Part shown: positions 3,478 to 37,230 of the stretch, piece after piece | Position numbering within the stretch: position 1 is the stretch's first letter | Layout: the number at the start of each line of letters is the position of its first letter | From: Heterodontus francisci | Taxonomy: Eukaryota | DNA length: 64,000 bases | NCBI RefSeq assembly: GCF_036365525.1 | Contig: NC_090399.1 | Span: 31,156,430 to 31,220,429, forward strand | Reading direction: 5' to 3' | Made by a program: the position numbers and the translations under genes | Notes under the pieces: model-generated | The model's input: the letters and a program-made list of their open reading frames with translations, nothing else | What the model was told of the DNA's origin: nothing | Databases searched by the model: none

Positions 3478-3518
3478 CAGATCTTGCACTCCTGTTGATA
3501 GAAACGAGGTGAAACTCG
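3478..3518 (-). CDS. Putative 41-nt exon D of the NCR3-like gene
   Basis: ttattttgcag|CGAGTT...GATCTG|gtaagt, both sites strong. Open in all frames (phase 1-0 ASFTSFLSTGVQDL; phase 2-1 EFHLVSINRSARS). Confidence 0.55.
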
Positions 3519-4238: not shown

Positions 4239-4276
4239 CCGCTGTGGGAGTGATTGCTGGAATATCTATTTCTTGC
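4239..4276 (-). CDS. Putative exon B1 (38 nt, phase 2-1: QEIDIPAITPTA)
   Basis: ttcttgctttgcag|GCAAGAA...CAGCGG|gtaaga. Same length and splice sites in all three copies. Confidence 0.6.
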
Positions 4277-4774: not shown

Positions 4775-4793
4775 GTTGGAGCCTGTTGAACAT
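4775..4793 (-). CDS. Putative micro-exon A1 (19 nt, phase 1-2: (D)VQQAP(T))
   Basis: tctcccttttcattag|ATGTTCAACAGGCTCCAAC|gtgagt. Confidence 0.6.
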
Positions 4794-6658: not shown

Positions 6659-6677
6659 CTTTGAGTCTGAAGAACAT
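6659..6677 (-). CDS. Putative micro-exon A2 (19 nt: (D)VLQTQ(R))
   Basis: gtcccttttcattag|ATGTTCTTCAGACTCAAAG|gtgagt. Confidence 0.6.
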
Positions 6678-10425: not shown

Positions 10426-10463
10426 CCTCTATGGAAGTCATGTCTGGAATATTTGTTTCTTGT
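10426..10463 (-). CDS. Putative exon B3 (38 nt: QETNIPDMTSIE)
   Basis: tcttgctttgcag|ACAAGA...TAGAGG|gtaaga. Confidence 0.65.
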
Positions 10464-25234: not shown

Positions 25235-25348
25235 CCTTCTTTCTGCGTAACTGCACACAGCGGAGTACAACGATTAGAAGGATACCTACTTCCACTGCTG
25301 CACTAATGAACAGGGTTAAAAATAGAGCCGTGGTAGATTTAGTTTTCC
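25235..25348 (-). CDS. ncr3: Transmembrane exon of the NCR3/NKp30-like receptor: (G)KTKSTTALFLTLFISAAVEVGILLIVVLRCVQLRRKK
   Basis: tgtgttctccatag|GG...AAGG|gtaagg. 114 nt, phase 1-1, a 22-aa hydrophobic helix followed by a basic stop-transfer. Not in the ORF track. Confidence 0.88.
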
Positions 25349-25894
25349 CTATGGAGAACACAACAAGTCAGATCGAAGCATTGAGACATAAGATCAGCAG
25401 CAGGCCGTTCGGCCCCTCGTATCTGTTCCATCTGAATCTTAATTCCTCTACCATCTTCATCCCACTTTTTAAAATATATAACTAACCAACAAGTTTGCTT
25501 TACAACGTGTGCTGCTTTTAATATAAAAGTTACTCCGCTATTTAAACACGAATTGGACAAAAAGGTGGTATCTTCCATGAAATACATCGCCCCATATTGA
25601 GTTCCACTGACTTTAGTAGCGCTGATTCGCACATGTGTGGTATAACGCAGTAAAAGCCAGCGCACCTGTTTTTTTGCCCCTATCCATGTCTAATTTCACC
25701 CCCAGTCTGTAACTGGTTATTTAATATGGTTAAGTATACTCCTCATTGCAGCTCAGGCTGATTCCGTCTTGAGTCCAACATGGGGCAGCCATTGTGACAG
25801 ACGCGCCAGTTGGGGATAGTGCCCCCACATTGTTCAGCAGATTCTCCCCAACCCCCATTGCTCAGTTGATATTGCAGATAGGAGAATGACTGAC

Positions 25895-26233
25895 CTCTCA
25901 CAGTGAGATTCGTTCCTGCTCCATATTCCTCGCCCAGTTGCATCATTTGCACTTTGCAGTAATACACCCCGGAATCATTCACTCTCACATCCGTTATTAT
26001 TATGGACGCATCTCCATGAAAGAAAGCCTCTTTTTGTTTGTAGATCCGTCCTCTGTACTGTGTTGTCCCATTGGAAACTTCAATGCCATTTCTGCTGTCC
26101 TTGTACCAACTATAAGACCCTATCGCCTTGGAGAGGTTGGCTGCGTATGTGCAGGGGAGGAAGACTGTCTGTCCTATATCTGCCAGAATCCTGGGCACCT
26201 TTTGAATAACTGTGAACTTCTCAGTGTTAATTC
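25895..26233 (-). CDS. ncr3: VJ-type Ig V-set domain exon, NKp30/NCR3-like
   Basis: tttactgatttccag|...AGAG|gtcagt. 339 nt, phase 1-1. FLPC..AIGSYSWYKD..G.EVSNGT..YRGR..DVRVNDSGVYYC..LG..YGAGTNLTV mirrors human NKp30 motifs as recalled (FLPC, AIGSVTW, EVRNGT, DVR, G.GT.L.V). Confidence 0.92.
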
Positions 26234-27200: not shown

Positions 27201-27243
27201 CCGAGAGGGCAGCCAATATCCATAGGGTGGGGCTTGGACTCAT
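27201..27243 (-). CDS. ncr3: Leader (signal peptide) exon MSPSPTLWILAALS(G)
   Basis: ATG at 27243 in gaaATG context. A perfect G|gtaagt donor in phase 1 matches the V exon. An acceptor ccactgcag| at 27247 implies upstream UTR exons. Confidence 0.8.
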
Positions 27244-29524: not shown

Positions 29525-31754
29525 TCACGCATGCACACACACACACACACGCACACACACACAGTGGCACAGATATTCACGCAGATAGGCACACACACAC
29601 ACACAATGATATAGATATTCACTCAGATAGACACACACGCACACACACACTATGGAAGAGATATTCACACCGATAGACATATTCACACTGTGGCAGGAAT
29701 ATGCACACAGATAGACACACACACTGTGCAAGAGATATTCAAACACACATACAGTGAAACAGATATTCACATAGGTAGACACACTCATACTGTGGCGGAA
29801 ATATTCACAGAGGTGACACACGCACTGTGACAGATATATTCACATAGATAGACACACACACACACACACTGTCAGAGATATTCACACAGATAGACACATA
29901 TACTGTGGCTGAATATTCACATAGATAGACGCAACTATGGCAGAGATATTCACACAGATAGATACACACACCCACTGTGACAGCGATATTCACACAGATG
30001 GACACGCACAAACTGTGGCAGGATATCCACTCAGATAGACAAACACGGTGACAGTGATAAATGCACAGATAAACATTAAAAAAACTGTGTGAGAGATATT
30101 CACTCAGATAGACATACACTGTGTGAGAGAGATTCACTCAGATGGACACACACATACTGTGCCAGAGATATTCACTCAGATGGCAACAGACACGCTGTGC
30201 CAGAACATTCACTCAGATGGACAAGCACGGTGACAGAGATAATTACACAGATAAACATAAACAAACAATGGGAGAGATATTCACACAAATAGAGACAAGC
30301 ACTGCGACAGACACAGATAGAAGCACTGAGAAAATAACACAGATATTCACTCAGAAAAACGCACACACAATCTGCCAGAGATATTCACAGCGATAGACAC
30401 ACTTATACTGTGACAGAGATATTCACACAGATGGCCACACACTACGAAAGAGATATTCACTCGGATGGACACACGCACACTGTGTCAGAGTTATACACAC
30501 AGTTAAACACACACACAGACTGTGACAGAGATATTCACACAGATGGACACGCGCACACTGTGCCAGATTTATACACACCATTAGACACACACACACAGTG
30601 TGACAGAGATATTCACACAGATGGACACACGCACACTGTGCCAGATTTATACACACAAGACACACACAAGCTGTGGCAGAGATATTCACACACATACACA
30701 CACAGAGACAGACAGACAGACACACACACACACACACACATATTAACACAAATATAAACACACACAATGTGCCAGAGATATTCACACAGATAGAGACACA
30801 CACTTTGTGGAAGAATATTCACTCAGGTAGACCATCATGGTGACAGTGATATTTGCACAGATAGATATAAACAAATTGCGTGAGAGATATTCACACAGAT
30901 AGACACATACTGTGACAGAGATATTCACACAGATAGACACATACTGTGACAGAGATATTCACACAGATAGACACACTCACACTGTGACAGAGATATTTAC
31001 ACAGATAGACACACTCATACTGTTAAAGTGATATTCACACAGATAGATACACACTGTGACAGAAATATTTGCACAGTTAGAGACACTCACACAGTGACAG
31101 AAATATTCACAGAGATATACACAGACACTGTGGCAGTGATATTCACACAGAATGACACACACTGAGCAGAGATATTGACAAACACATACATACACACCCA
31201 AACACACTTACACAATGACACAGATATTCACTCAAATATATACACACACAATGTGGGCATTGATATTTACACAGTTAGATACAAACACTGTGGGAGAGAT
31301 ATTCACTTAGCTAAACAAACATACACTGTGGCACAGATATTCACACACACACACAAACACACACAAACACACACACACACACACACATAGTGACAGAGAT
31401 ATTCACATAGATGGACACACTCTCACTGTGGGAGTGATATTCACACTGATAGACGCACTCACACTGTGGCGGAATATTCACAGATGTAGCCATACACACT
31501 GTGGCAGAGATATTCACACAGACAGACAAACACACACTGTGGGAGAGATATTCCCACAGACAAGCACTGTGACAGAGATATTCACACGATAGACACACAA
31601 TGTGGCAGAATAGTCACTCAGATAGACACACACCGTGACAGAAATATTTGCACAGTTGGAGACACTCACACTGAGACAGAAATATTCACACAGGTAGTCA
31701 CTGACACTGTGGCAGTGATATTCACACAAAAGACACACACTGAGCAGAGATATT

Positions 31755-31802
<48 letters not shown>

Positions 31803-31960
31803 ATGGCACAGATATTCACTCAAATATACACACACACAATGTGTTAGAGATATTCACACAGATACACACACACACTGTGGCAGTGATATTTACACAGTTA
31901 GATACAAATACTGTGGGAGAGATATTCACTCAGTACACAAACATACACTGTAGCAGAGAT

Positions 31961-31995
<35 letters not shown>

Positions 31996-34900
31996 GACAG
32001 AGATATTCACATAGAGGGACACACTCTCACTGTGGCAGAGATATTCATACAGATAGACAGATAAACACACTGTGGGAGAGAGATTCCAACAGACAGTCAC
32101 AAGCACTGTGACAGACATATTCACATAGATAGACACAGACACTCTGTCCGAGATAGTCACACAGATAGACACACATACTGTGGAGGAATTTTCGCTCAGA
32201 TAGACACAACTGTGGCAGAGATATTGACTCAATCAGACATGCACAAACTGTGGCAGAGATATTCACACAGATAGTCAGACACACTGTGGCAGACATATTC
32301 ACTATTATAGACACAAACATATTGTGATAGAATAAACACGGTGACAGAGATAATTACACAGACAGACATATACAAACTGTGTGAGAGTTATTAACACAGA
32401 CAGACACACATTGCGACAGAGATATTCTCACAGATAGACACACACACACTGTGGTAGAGATATTCACACAGATAGACAGGCACACTGTGGCAGACATATT
32501 CACTCAGATAGACACAAACATATTGTGATAGAATAAACACGGTGACAGAGATAATTACACAGACAGACATATACAAACTGTGTGAGAGTTATTAACACAG
32601 ACAGACACACATTGCGACAGAGATATTCTCACAGATAGACACACACACACTGTGGCAGAGATATTCACACAGATAGACAGACACACTGTGGCAGACATAT
32701 TCACTCAGATGGACACAAACATATTGTGATAGACTAAACACGGTGACAGAGATAATTACACAGACAGACATATACAAACTGTGTGAGAGTTATTAACACA
32801 GACAGACACACATTGCGACAGAGATATTCTCACAGATAGACACACACACACTGTGGCAGAGATATTCACACAGATAGACACACACACTGTGGCAGACATA
32901 TTCACTCAGATAGACACAAACATATTGTGATAGAATAAACACGGTGACGGAGATAATTACACAGACAGACATATACAAACTGTGTGAGAGTTATTAACAC
33001 AGACAGACACACATTGCGACAGAGATATTCTCACAGATAGACACACACACACTGTGGCAGGGATATTCACACAAAAAGACACACATACACTGTGTCAGAG
33101 ATATTCACACACACACACACAATGACACAGATATTCACTCAAATATACACACACACAATAGGTAAATTGGCCGTTGTAAATTGCCCCGAGTATAGGGAGG
33201 TGATAGGGAATATGGGATTACTGTAGGGTTAGTATAAATGGGTGGTTGTTGGTCGGCACAGACTCGGAGGGCCGAAGGGCCTGTTTCAGTGCTGTATCTC
33301 TAAATAAATAAATAAATAAATAACAATGTGCCAGAGATATTGACACAGATAGACAAACACACTGTGGCAGAATAATAACTCAGATAAACAAACACGTTGG
33401 CAGCGATAATTGCACAAATAAACATAAGCCAATTGTGTGAGTGATATTCACTCAGATAGACACATACTATGACAGAGATATCCACATAGATAGACGTTCT
33501 CACACCGTGGCAGAGATATTCACACAGATAAACACACTTACTGTGCCAGAGATATACACACATTTTGACAGACAGACACACTGTGACAAAGATATTCACA
33601 CAGATAGAGACACATACACTGTGGCAGAATATTCACTCAGATGTACACACACTTACTGTGCCAGAGATATACACACAGGTTGACAGACATACACACTGTG
33701 ACAGAGATATTCACACAGATAGACACACACACACACTGCGGCAGAATATTCACTCAGATGGACAAGCACGGTGACAGAGATAATTACACAGATAGACACA
33801 CACACCCACTGTGACAGATATTCACATGGATAGACACACGCTGTGACAGAGATATTCACACAGATAAACACACTCACTCTGTGACAGAGAAATTCACTCA
33901 GATGGACACACACATACTGTGCCAGAGATATACACATAGACTGACAGACACACACACTGTGACAGAGCTATTCACACAGATAGACACCCATACACTGTGG
34001 CAGAATATTAACTCAGATGGACAAGCACTGTGCCAGAGATATACACACAGATAGACACACACACCCACTGTGACAGATATTCACATGGATAGACACACAC
34101 ACACACTGCGGCAGAATATTAACTCAGATGGACAAGCACTGTGCCAGAGATATACACACAGGTTGACAGACATACACACTGTGACAGAGATATTCACACA
34201 GATAGACACACACACACACTGCGGCAGAATATTCACTCAGATGGACAAGCACTGTGCCAGAGATATACACACAGATAGACACACACACCCACTGTGACAG
34301 ATATTCACATGGATAGACACACGCTGTGACAGAGATATTCACACAGATAAACACACTCACTCTGTGACAGGGAAATTCACTCAGATGGACACACACATAC
34401 TGTGCCAGAGATATACACATAGACTGACAGACACACACACTGTGACAGAGCTATTCACACAGATAGACACCCATACACTGTGGCAGAATATTAACTCAGA
34501 TGGACAAGCACGGTGAGAGAGATAATTACACAGATAGGCATAAACAAACAGTATGAGAGATGTTAACACAGATAGACACACACTTTAACAGAGATCTTCA
34601 CATAGATAGACACTCTCACAATGTGACTGAGATATTCACACAGATGGCCACACACTATGGCAGAGATGTTCACAGATATACACTCTCATACTGTGACAGA
34701 GATATTCACACGGATAGACAAAGACACTGTGGCAGAGATAGTCACACACTCACACACACACACAAAATGACACAGATATTCACTCAAATATACACACACA
34801 CAATGTGCCAGTGATAGTCACACAGATCGACACACACACTGTGGCAGAATATTCACTGAGACAAACAAACACGGTGAAAGTGATAATTGCACAGATAGAC

Positions 34901-35855
34901 ATAAACAAACTGTGTGAGAGATATTCACACAGATAGACACACACTGTGACAGTGATATTCACACAGATAAACACACTCACACTGTGACAGAGATAGTCAC
35001 ACTGTTGGCCATGCACTATGACAGAGAAATTCACTCAGAGGGACACACATGTAGTGTGCAAGAGATATACACACAGATTGAGAGACACACATTGTAACAG
35101 TGATATTCACACAGATAAACACACTCACAGCGTGACAGAGATAGTCACACAGGTGGCCACGCACTATGACAGAGATATTCACTCAGATGGACACACACAT
35201 AATGTGCCAGATAAATACACACAGATTGATAGACACACACTGCGACAGAGATATTCACACAGATATATACGCACACACGTTGGCATAGATAATTACACAG
35301 ATAGACATAAACAAACTGTGTGAGAGATATTCACACAGATAGACATGCACTGTGACAGAGATATTCACTCAGTTAGACACATTCATACTGTGACAGAGAT
35401 ATTCACACAGATGACCAGACACTATGACAGAGATATTCAATCAGATGGGCACACACACACTGTGCCAGAGACATTCACTCAGATAGACACACACAGTGAC
35501 TGAGATAATTACACAGATAGACAGAAACAAACTGTGTGAGAGATTTTCACTCAGATAGACACACACTGTGACAGAGATATTCACACAGATAGATAGACTC
35601 GCACTGTGACAGAAATTTTCACACCGATAGACGCACTCATACTGTGACAGATATTCACACAGATGGCCACAAACTGTGACAGAGATATTCACTCTGATGG
35701 ACATGCACACACTCTGTGCCAGAGATACACACACAGATAGACCCTCACACACTGTGGCAGAATATTCACTACATAAACAAACACGGTGACAGAGATAATT
35801 ACACAGGTTGACTTATACAAACAATGTGAGAACTATTCACACATGTAGACACACT
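29525..35855. repeat. Complex CA-rich satellite, ~30-35-bp monomer (cacactgtgacagagatattcacacagataga), with higher-order repeats
   Basis: The monomer recurs for ~6.3 kb. Near-identical 201-bp blocks at ~32270-33060 (ORF track repeats at 32391, 32592, 32793) and a ~480-bp duplication at ~33640-34510. Confidence 0.95.
33160..33322 (+). mobile_element. 5'-truncated V-SINE inserted in the satellite
   Basis: Matches the 3' half of the SINEs at 16096-16774. (TAAA)n tail, acaat on both sides. Confidence 0.85.
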
Positions 35856-36594: not shown

Positions 36595-37230
36595 GTGTGC
36601 AGTGAGACAGGGACACCAGCAAATGGAGATAGAGGAGGTGACTGATTTCAGTTTTACAGGAACACCAGCAGATGGAGAAGGTTAGAGGGAGTAACTGAAT
36701 GCAGTGAGACAGGGCCACCAGCAGATGGGGATGGTGAGCAAGGTGATTTAGTGCAGTGAAACAGGGCCACCAGCAAATGGAGACGGTGAGTGAGGTGATT
36801 GAGTGCAGTGAAACAGGGACACCAGCAAATGGAGATGGTGAGAGGTGGGGTAACTGAGTGCAGTGAGACAGGGACACCAGCAGATAGAGATGGTGAGGGG
36901 GGTCGGAGTGAATTGAGACAGGGCTACCAGCTGATAGAGATGGTGAGAGGGGGTGACGGCAGTGAAACAGGGACACCAGCAGATGGCGATGGTGAGCGGG
37001 GTTAACTGAGTGCAGTGAAGCTGGAATACGAGCAGATGGAGATGGTGAGAGAGGTGACTGATGCAGTGAGAGAGGGATAGTAGCGTACGGTGATAGAAAG
37101 AGGGGGTGACTGCAGTGAGACAGAGACACCAGCAGATGGAGATGGTGAGAGGGGTTAACTGAGTGCCACATAGCCCTGCAAGGTGTAGCATATAAAGAGA
37201 GGGGGGTGACTGATTGCAGCGAGAAACGAT
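36595..37230. repeat. Minisatellite, ~51-55-bp unit (gcagtgagacagggacaccagcagatggagatggtgagaggggttaactgagt), ~11 copies
   Basis: Directly visible tandem recurrence. Confidence 0.9.

Follow-up and report, generated by a model that had tools for sequence, protein, structure and literature searches.

NKp30 (NCR3) is among the few NK receptors whose history can be followed back to sharks; mammals have it as one activating gene. The mammalian receptor couples to zeta/gamma via an Arg in its transmembrane (TM) segment (PMC13107469, PMC6514059). In a 64,000-nucleotide stretch of the genome of the horn shark Heterodontus francisci (hereafter the window), an NKp30-like gene carries a mid-membrane Glu in place of such a basic residue, which prompts one to ask in what way this receptor would signal. 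A reading made earlier from the letters of the window, the sequence-only reading, had concluded that canonical adaptor pairing was excluded, that the receptor might pair with a basic-TM NCR3 family member or act as a decoy or modulator, and that its tail repeats held no Tyr motif. The resulting picture of a charge-reversed, tail-less receptor fails on the evidence described below.

Gene structure and transcripts

Two H. francisci proteins, P0008 and P0009, whose source label is "uncharacterized", agreed letter for letter with the leader, V and TM exons and with seven small tail exons of one gene in the window, here called gene A. All of its parts within the window lie on the minus strand:
27201..27243, minus strand: exon coding for the leader (signal peptide), MSPSPTLWILAALS-G, exact match to P0008/P0009, gt donor
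25895..26233, minus strand: single-exon V-type Ig domain, NKp30-like (Pfam V-set, E 6e-14), with contigs in X1 and X2
25235..25348, minus strand: TM exon, 114 nt, phase 1-1, ag/gt bounds, V-TM joint in one contig
25328-25263, minus strand: TM segment of 22 residues within the TM exon
25290..25292, minus strand: GAA codon of Glu147, the polar TM position, 13th of the 22 TM residues
11046..11064, minus strand: tail mini-exon 1, 19 nt, entered by contig loose ends from the TM exon and from the V exon
10426..10463, minus strand: tail mini-exon 2, 38 nt, forming with mini-exon 1 a 19-aa repeat unit
6659..6677, minus strand: tail mini-exon 3, 19 nt, from mapping of P0008/P0009
5861..5898, minus strand: tail mini-exon 4, 38 nt, from the same mapping
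4775..4793, minus strand: tail mini-exon 5, 19 nt, from the same mapping
4239..4276, minus strand: tail mini-exon 6, 38 nt, from the same mapping
3478..3518, minus strand: tail exon 7, the last within the window, from the same mapping
G000:C29:31155366-31145365: seven further mapped P0009 exons, 1-11 kb past the low end of the window

The interval 25235..25348 coincides with the bounds of the TM exon, whose encoded peptide, KTKSTTALFLTLFISAAVEVGILLIVVLRCVQLRRKK, is read on the minus strand from 25348 to 25235; frame 1 of the interval does not yield this peptide. The reported mid-membrane Glu (GAA) was found as described, at 25292-25290, and Arg and Lys are absent inside the 22-residue TM of gene A. 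The tail spacer between 11064 and 4239 on the minus strand is made of three copies of the 19-nt plus 38-nt exon pair, which occurs in two copies in paralog B and in one copy in paralog D.

Transcript evidence came from three runs (X1, X2 and X3) of one sample, which is regarded as RNA by a guess for which there is no record. The X1 and X2 contigs were confined to exons, with loose ends that correspond to the leader and to tail exons 1-2, and the leader exon was identical to the contig loose end beyond the V exon; run X3 gave no contig on any gene A exon. One X1 contig leaves out 25348-25893, a gap bounded by GT..AG, with 31 letters matched on its V side, and thus joins the V and TM exons, a joint whose absence would have spoken against the original proposal. 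In the X1 and X2 contigs the TM exon matches the assembly base for base, with 0 differences, so the Glu does not stem from faulty assembly. This identity, together with the corresponding column in relatives, rules out both an assembly error and a GGA>GAA change private to this genome; an unspliced or pseudo-exon was ruled out by the V-TM contig joint, the ag/gt bounds and the phase. The V exon showed a single difference in the X1 and X2 contigs (26159 G>A), which turns the Leu codon immediately preceding the first V-domain Cys into Phe and reflects either an allele or another animal.

Skipping of the 114-nt TM exon is in frame, since both of its ends are in phase 1. In X1 and in X2 a contig runs from the V exon (25895) directly into tail exon 1 (11064), in frame, with 29 letters, fewer than the 31 that the bridging rule of the tool demands, and at a depth of 4.9 in X1 and 14.4 in X2, all from one sample. 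These contig ends suggest a TM-skipped, soluble form of gene A. A V exon without the TM exon was present in none of the six isoform models (named X1, X2, X3, X5, X6 and X7), isoform X7 being without both. P0188 (334 aa) was considered as the TM-skipped isoform and rejected, as its length fits, yet the TM is retained. The catshark model P0007 also lacks the TM exon.

Family membership and paired layout

The description of the receptor as NKp30-like was confirmed. The top PDB matches of the V domain were NKp30 (E 5e-17), with the next family at 1e-8, and the V-set is encoded by one non-rearranging exon and groups with proteins that their sources name NCR3; searches of the ESM Atlas returned generic V-set clusters only. 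In V-domain trees gene A falls within a 22-row branch of sharks and rays, with support of 91/86 in a tree of 54 rows and 94/85 in one of 48 rows, from which six horn shark rows that were long or distant had been removed. On one-to-one orthology with tetrapod NCR3 the two trees differ: only the 54-row tree places this branch as the sister of tetrapod NCR3 (90/88), whereas the 48-row tree unites all shark rows apart from the tetrapods. By its V domain, gene A is a member of the broad NCR3/NKp30 family. A V-domain search of the genome gave 37 matches, 35 of them on contig C29, which also holds 59 of the 64 MHC I matches and both MHC II alpha matches (2/2), the nearest MHC I being ~0.89 Mb off.

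Mammalian NKp30 likewise has a single V domain in one exon, a G-strand GxGT and a place on the MHC chromosome. It differs in its Arg, which lies in the upper TM half, and its short tail, whereas gene A has no such Arg, has a long tail with Tyr motifs, and is a member of a large local family. Several divergent MHC-linked NCR3 subtypes of sharks were reportedly described by Kinlein et al. in 2021, and the polar-TM subtype with YxxM and ITIM motifs may already be among them. Gene A belongs to the same radiation, as the nurse shark protein P0047 (source name NCR3) is placed among the horn shark paralogs in the V trees; unlike gene A, P0047 has a Lys-TM and a short tail.

Within 434 kb around the window there are four genes with a polar TM (A to D), three short Arg-TM exons (LYIVRG) plus one WYIRAG exon, and four neutral-TM exons tied to ITIM tails. 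A further three exons, with a Lys in the TM, are found at C29:14.9-15.4 Mb. Among the Arg-bearing genes, gene E has an open frame:
G000:C29:31236734-31244583, plus strand: gene E, open leader-V-TM frame with a TM Arg, head-to-head with gene A and ~53 kb away

Gene E is the nearest of the Arg-TM paralogs with similar V domains, its V domain being 76% identical to that of gene A in amino acids and 88.5% in nucleotides. There was no sign of recent conversion between the two genes, as the 88.5% compares with 81.6-87.3% for six paralogs and the flanks are 64-68% identical. No protein matching gene E was found in the protein searches, and of the other Arg genes one has stops in V and another has its first V truncated. 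In one branch the V domains of the Arg type and the polar type are intermingled, the Arg type forming no clade of its own (3 changes), and in the basking shark both the Arg type and the Glu type are present, under consecutive locus numbers (P0023, P0167). Since Arg-, Lys-, neutral/ITIM- and polar/YxxM-ITIM versions occur on one MHC-linked contig, NCR3 appears to have formed a complete paired system among cartilaginous fish. Judged from these sequences, gene A is likely the inhibitory, possibly dual, arm of this paired family.

Several further loci of the family were recorded. The WYIRAG TM exon, with its V exon at G000:C29:31083274-31077052 (minus strand), is the closest look-alike in the cluster of the mammalian NKp30 TM (LLRAG). 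A second cluster of V genes at G000:C29:14.83-15.42 Mb has Lys-, Arg- and neutral-TM exons; its Lys type groups with nurse shark P0047, and one of the TM exons in the cluster, at 15204966, has an adjacent Glu-Arg. Paralog D, at G000:C29:31480847-31456743 (minus strand), is a gene of three V domains in which the Glu is retained, with the Tyr of its YxxM changed to Asp; a search for its ITIM exon found none.

The polar membrane position and the tail

Alignment A2 comprised 9 genes from 6 species (sharks and one ray), and the residues aligned with Glu147 are E,T,T,E,E,E,H,N,Q. Glu is found in gene A, paralog D, the white shark and the basking shark, Thr in paralogs B and C, His and Asn in two bamboo sharks, and Gln in the devil ray; the catshark model, from which the TM exon is absent, does not enter this count. 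The column is polar in 9/9 genes, strongly polar (E/Q/N/H) in 7/9 and acidic in 4/9, so that acidity varies among the relatives. It is the sole one of the 22 TM-core columns in A2 with any of D/E/N/Q/H/K/R. Hydrophobic residues were found in 0/9 across sharks and ray, and Gly, Val or Ala, each one base change from GAA and named beforehand as residues that would speak against the proposal, likewise in 0/9. As far as these nine sequences go, the position keeps polarity, not charge. The codons for E, Q, H and N are alike in having A as their second base, and this shared A, with drift at positions 1 and 3, implies that polarity is partly self-maintaining. Paralogs B and C have Thr only, plus Pro/Gly changes. 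The E/Q/N/H/T series amounts to a natural experiment on a buried polar residue in an ITIM receptor.

For comparison, we used 69 other TM-bearing matches among P0016-P0161, taken from a representative search and limited to 100-700 aa with a hydropathy of at least 2.0, the gene A subfamily being excluded. Only one of the 69 carries D/E among the 11 positions at the centre of its TM, and an acidic TM core is therefore uncommon; D/E/N/Q/H were found there in 9/69. The single acidic-core TM belongs to the NCR3-like sturgeon protein P0099, which has both Lys and Glu. The best 19-residue Kyte-Doolittle mean of the gene A TM is 2.65. An AlphaFold model built on the 9-row alignment had a mean pLDDT of 39.9, with the TM helix alone at 55-70, and a helix at 133-174 of this low-confidence model spans the TM. 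On the helical face of Glu147 lie L136, L140 (invariant), S143 and L151, and this face was more conserved than the other positions at a borderline level (p 0.059 with 9 rows, 0.037 with 6 rows) in a post hoc comparison of related rows.

The tail of gene A is 155-207 residues long and has Tyr motifs of its own. The absence of Tyr motifs reported for the tail repeats was correct for the window, where the seven tail exons (residues 166-236) contain 0 Tyr, and did not extend to the full tail, which has three such motifs: SIYIPM (Y298), IQYTEI (Y336) and FEYEEL (Y365). Their exons lie on C29 beyond the window:
C29, 31154453: exon with the YxxM motif
C29, 31146983: exon with the ITIM-like motif
C29, 31145397: exon with FEYEEL

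All three motifs (YxxM, ITIM-like and YxEL) are present in 7/7 full-tail proteins from 6 species, namely the horn shark (two genes), white, basking and brownbanded bamboo sharks, devil ray and catshark, a count that excludes P0004, P0010, P0014 and P0015 because their tails are incomplete. In these seven proteins the motifs are spaced by 36-43 and 28-30 residues, the latter from ITIM to YxEL, and in gene A Y336 and Y365 are 29 residues apart. A 29-residue spacing of Tyr suits tandem-SH2 phosphatases. The ITIM-like pattern [ILVST]xYxx[ILV], the non-classical consensus given in PMC12447643, was matched by IQYTEI in gene A, which fits this consensus only, and by IQYATI, IQYASI, IHYATL, IQYAVI and VQYATI in relatives. 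YxxM motifs are usually activating. PMC13107469 describes YxxM as a p85 site, as in CD28, and PMC6514059 an ITIM in NKp44 that recruits no phosphatase. A signalling-dead decoy was ruled out for the full-length form by the conserved Tyr motifs of the tail, and the decoy or modulator role suggested earlier fits only the probable TM-skipped isoform.

Possible modes of signalling

Within TM segments, strongly polar residues drive the association of helices. We consider it about an even chance (roughly 50%) that gene A signals via its own tail, with an inhibitory and possibly dual outcome, and that Glu147 serves as a hydrogen-bonding packing site, most likely for association with itself or with family members. 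Because the position keeps its polarity, though not its acidity, among related sharks and a ray, Glu147 likely helps helix packing instead of reversing the usual charge pairing. Binding of a putative, B7H6-like ligand would lead to phosphorylation of the tail Tyr residues, after which Y336 together with Y365 could recruit a tandem-SH2 phosphatase (SHP-1/2) and Y298 (YxxM) could recruit PI3K p85. The face formed by Glu147 with L136, L140, S143 and L151 would hold the TM helices together, and skipping of the TM exon would release a soluble V-plus-tail form.

The earlier claim that canonical adaptor pairing is excluded holds in that the Arg needed for an Arg-Asp-Asp arrangement is absent; it goes too far in that an acidic TM is compatible with FcRgamma/zeta, as PMC13107469 and PMC12447643 describe for CD16A (FxxDT) and CD300C (E191). 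A dual receptor, which would combine its own tail with zeta/FcRgamma bound via Glu147 hydrogen bonds and, like CD300f, could turn from inhibiting to activating and back, seems rather unlikely to us. E191 of the CD300C TM is required for FcRgamma signalling (PMC12447643) and CLM-1 binds FcRgamma in spite of its ITIMs (PMC4415817), and the depth of Glu147 and its acid/amide exchange fit the mode of CD16A (Asp) and CD64 (Asn) described in PMC13107469. The horn shark genome also has a TM exon of the zeta/FcRgamma type, which contains Asp and Y-G-x-x-x-T. However, the FxxD/NT motif is missing, with F at -3 in 1/9 and T at +1 in 0/9 of the A2 genes, a distribution on which a CD16-type motif was rejected for gene A; the Glu of CD300C is the 8th of 21 TM residues, whereas that of gene A is the 13th of 22; and gene A has signalling motifs of its own. 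A DAP12/CD3-type adaptor role (DxxxT) was rejected because +4 is L or F in 9/9, and a genome search for the DAP10 family gave a single weak match with a stop (E 0.21), which was not accepted as a gene.

That the polar residue has no specific partner, being either tolerated or a means of tuning ER retention or turnover in a plain monomeric inhibitory receptor, seems unlikely to us. The five different residues at the column, whose position-2-A codons interconvert by single changes, speak for such a reading, and the helix remains hydrophobic (2.65) in a background where 9/69 TMs are polar in their core; yet no hydrophobic residue has replaced the polar one in nine genes, though Gly, Val and Ala are one change away, and all other TM-core columns are non-polar. 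Pairing of Glu147 by a salt bridge with the Arg or Lys of an activating paralog, which would sequester that paralog from its adaptor or bring an ITIM adjacent to it, takes up the partner proposal of the sequence-only reading, and we judge it very improbable. Basic-TM paralogs do lie nearby: the 0.43-Mb stretch around gene A has four exons with a TM Arg, and C29:14.9-15.4 Mb has three with a Lys. Glu is kept in horn, white and basking sharks, two of which also have the Arg type. Acidity in only 4/9 argues against such a bridge, which is impossible for the His, Asn, Gln and Thr orthologs (5/9). The basic TM residues are, moreover, in the upper half of the helix, the Arg of the nearest paralog at +15 from the cytosolic basic residue vs +10 for Glu, and the Lys-TM exons have at least 14 residues below the Lys, vs +10 for Glu147.

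For the packing and tail-signalling reading, CD300f/CLM-1 offers a precedent: PMC4415817 describes a single V domain, ITIMs plus a p85 site, a soluble TM-less isoform and activating relatives. Gene A shares the single V domain, the ITIM-like motif, the putative p85 site and, probably, the soluble isoform and the pairing with activating relatives, but CD300 is another Ig lineage, the best V match here being NKp30. In the CD300A/CD300C pair the Glu is on the tail-less activating CD300C, whereas in gene A it is on the ITIM-bearing member and deeper. CD16A and CD64 (FxxDT/FxxNT) differ from gene A in having the motif Phe and Thr, in being without ITIM tails and in not being V-type NCR3. In searches of a mostly non-subscription literature by title, abstract opening and passage (including PMC12227049, PMC10751288, PMC12272517, PMC11599192, PMC12863176 and PMC4536121), we found no description of a polar-TM, ITIM-bearing shark NCR3, and a term search of the elephant shark supplement (PMC3964593) gave 0 matches. 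Paired receptors and polar TM sites are principles already known.

A broader proposal, which is conceivable but doubtful, is that gene A represents a switch-receptor subtype of NKp30 kept in sharks and rays, with an ITIM/YxxM tail, a polar TM that docks on zeta/FcRgamma or on an Arg twin, and a soluble TM-skipped decoy. Its retention in sharks and rays would span ~250-300 million years, and, if the proposal is true, mammals would have lost a checkpoint arm of NKp30.

The window also holds the last two exons of P0045, an NCR3-like protein with a neutral TM, at 61277-61191 and 59934-59851 on the minus strand; each has an ITIM (VQYSAL and VQYCTL), and the rest of the gene is mostly above the window. 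Upstream of gene A, positions 29530-35800 are occupied by a ~6 kb degenerate CA-rich satellite with a period of ~36-38 and positions 36597-37224 by a 52-bp repeat, and many retroelement fragments are scattered throughout the window.
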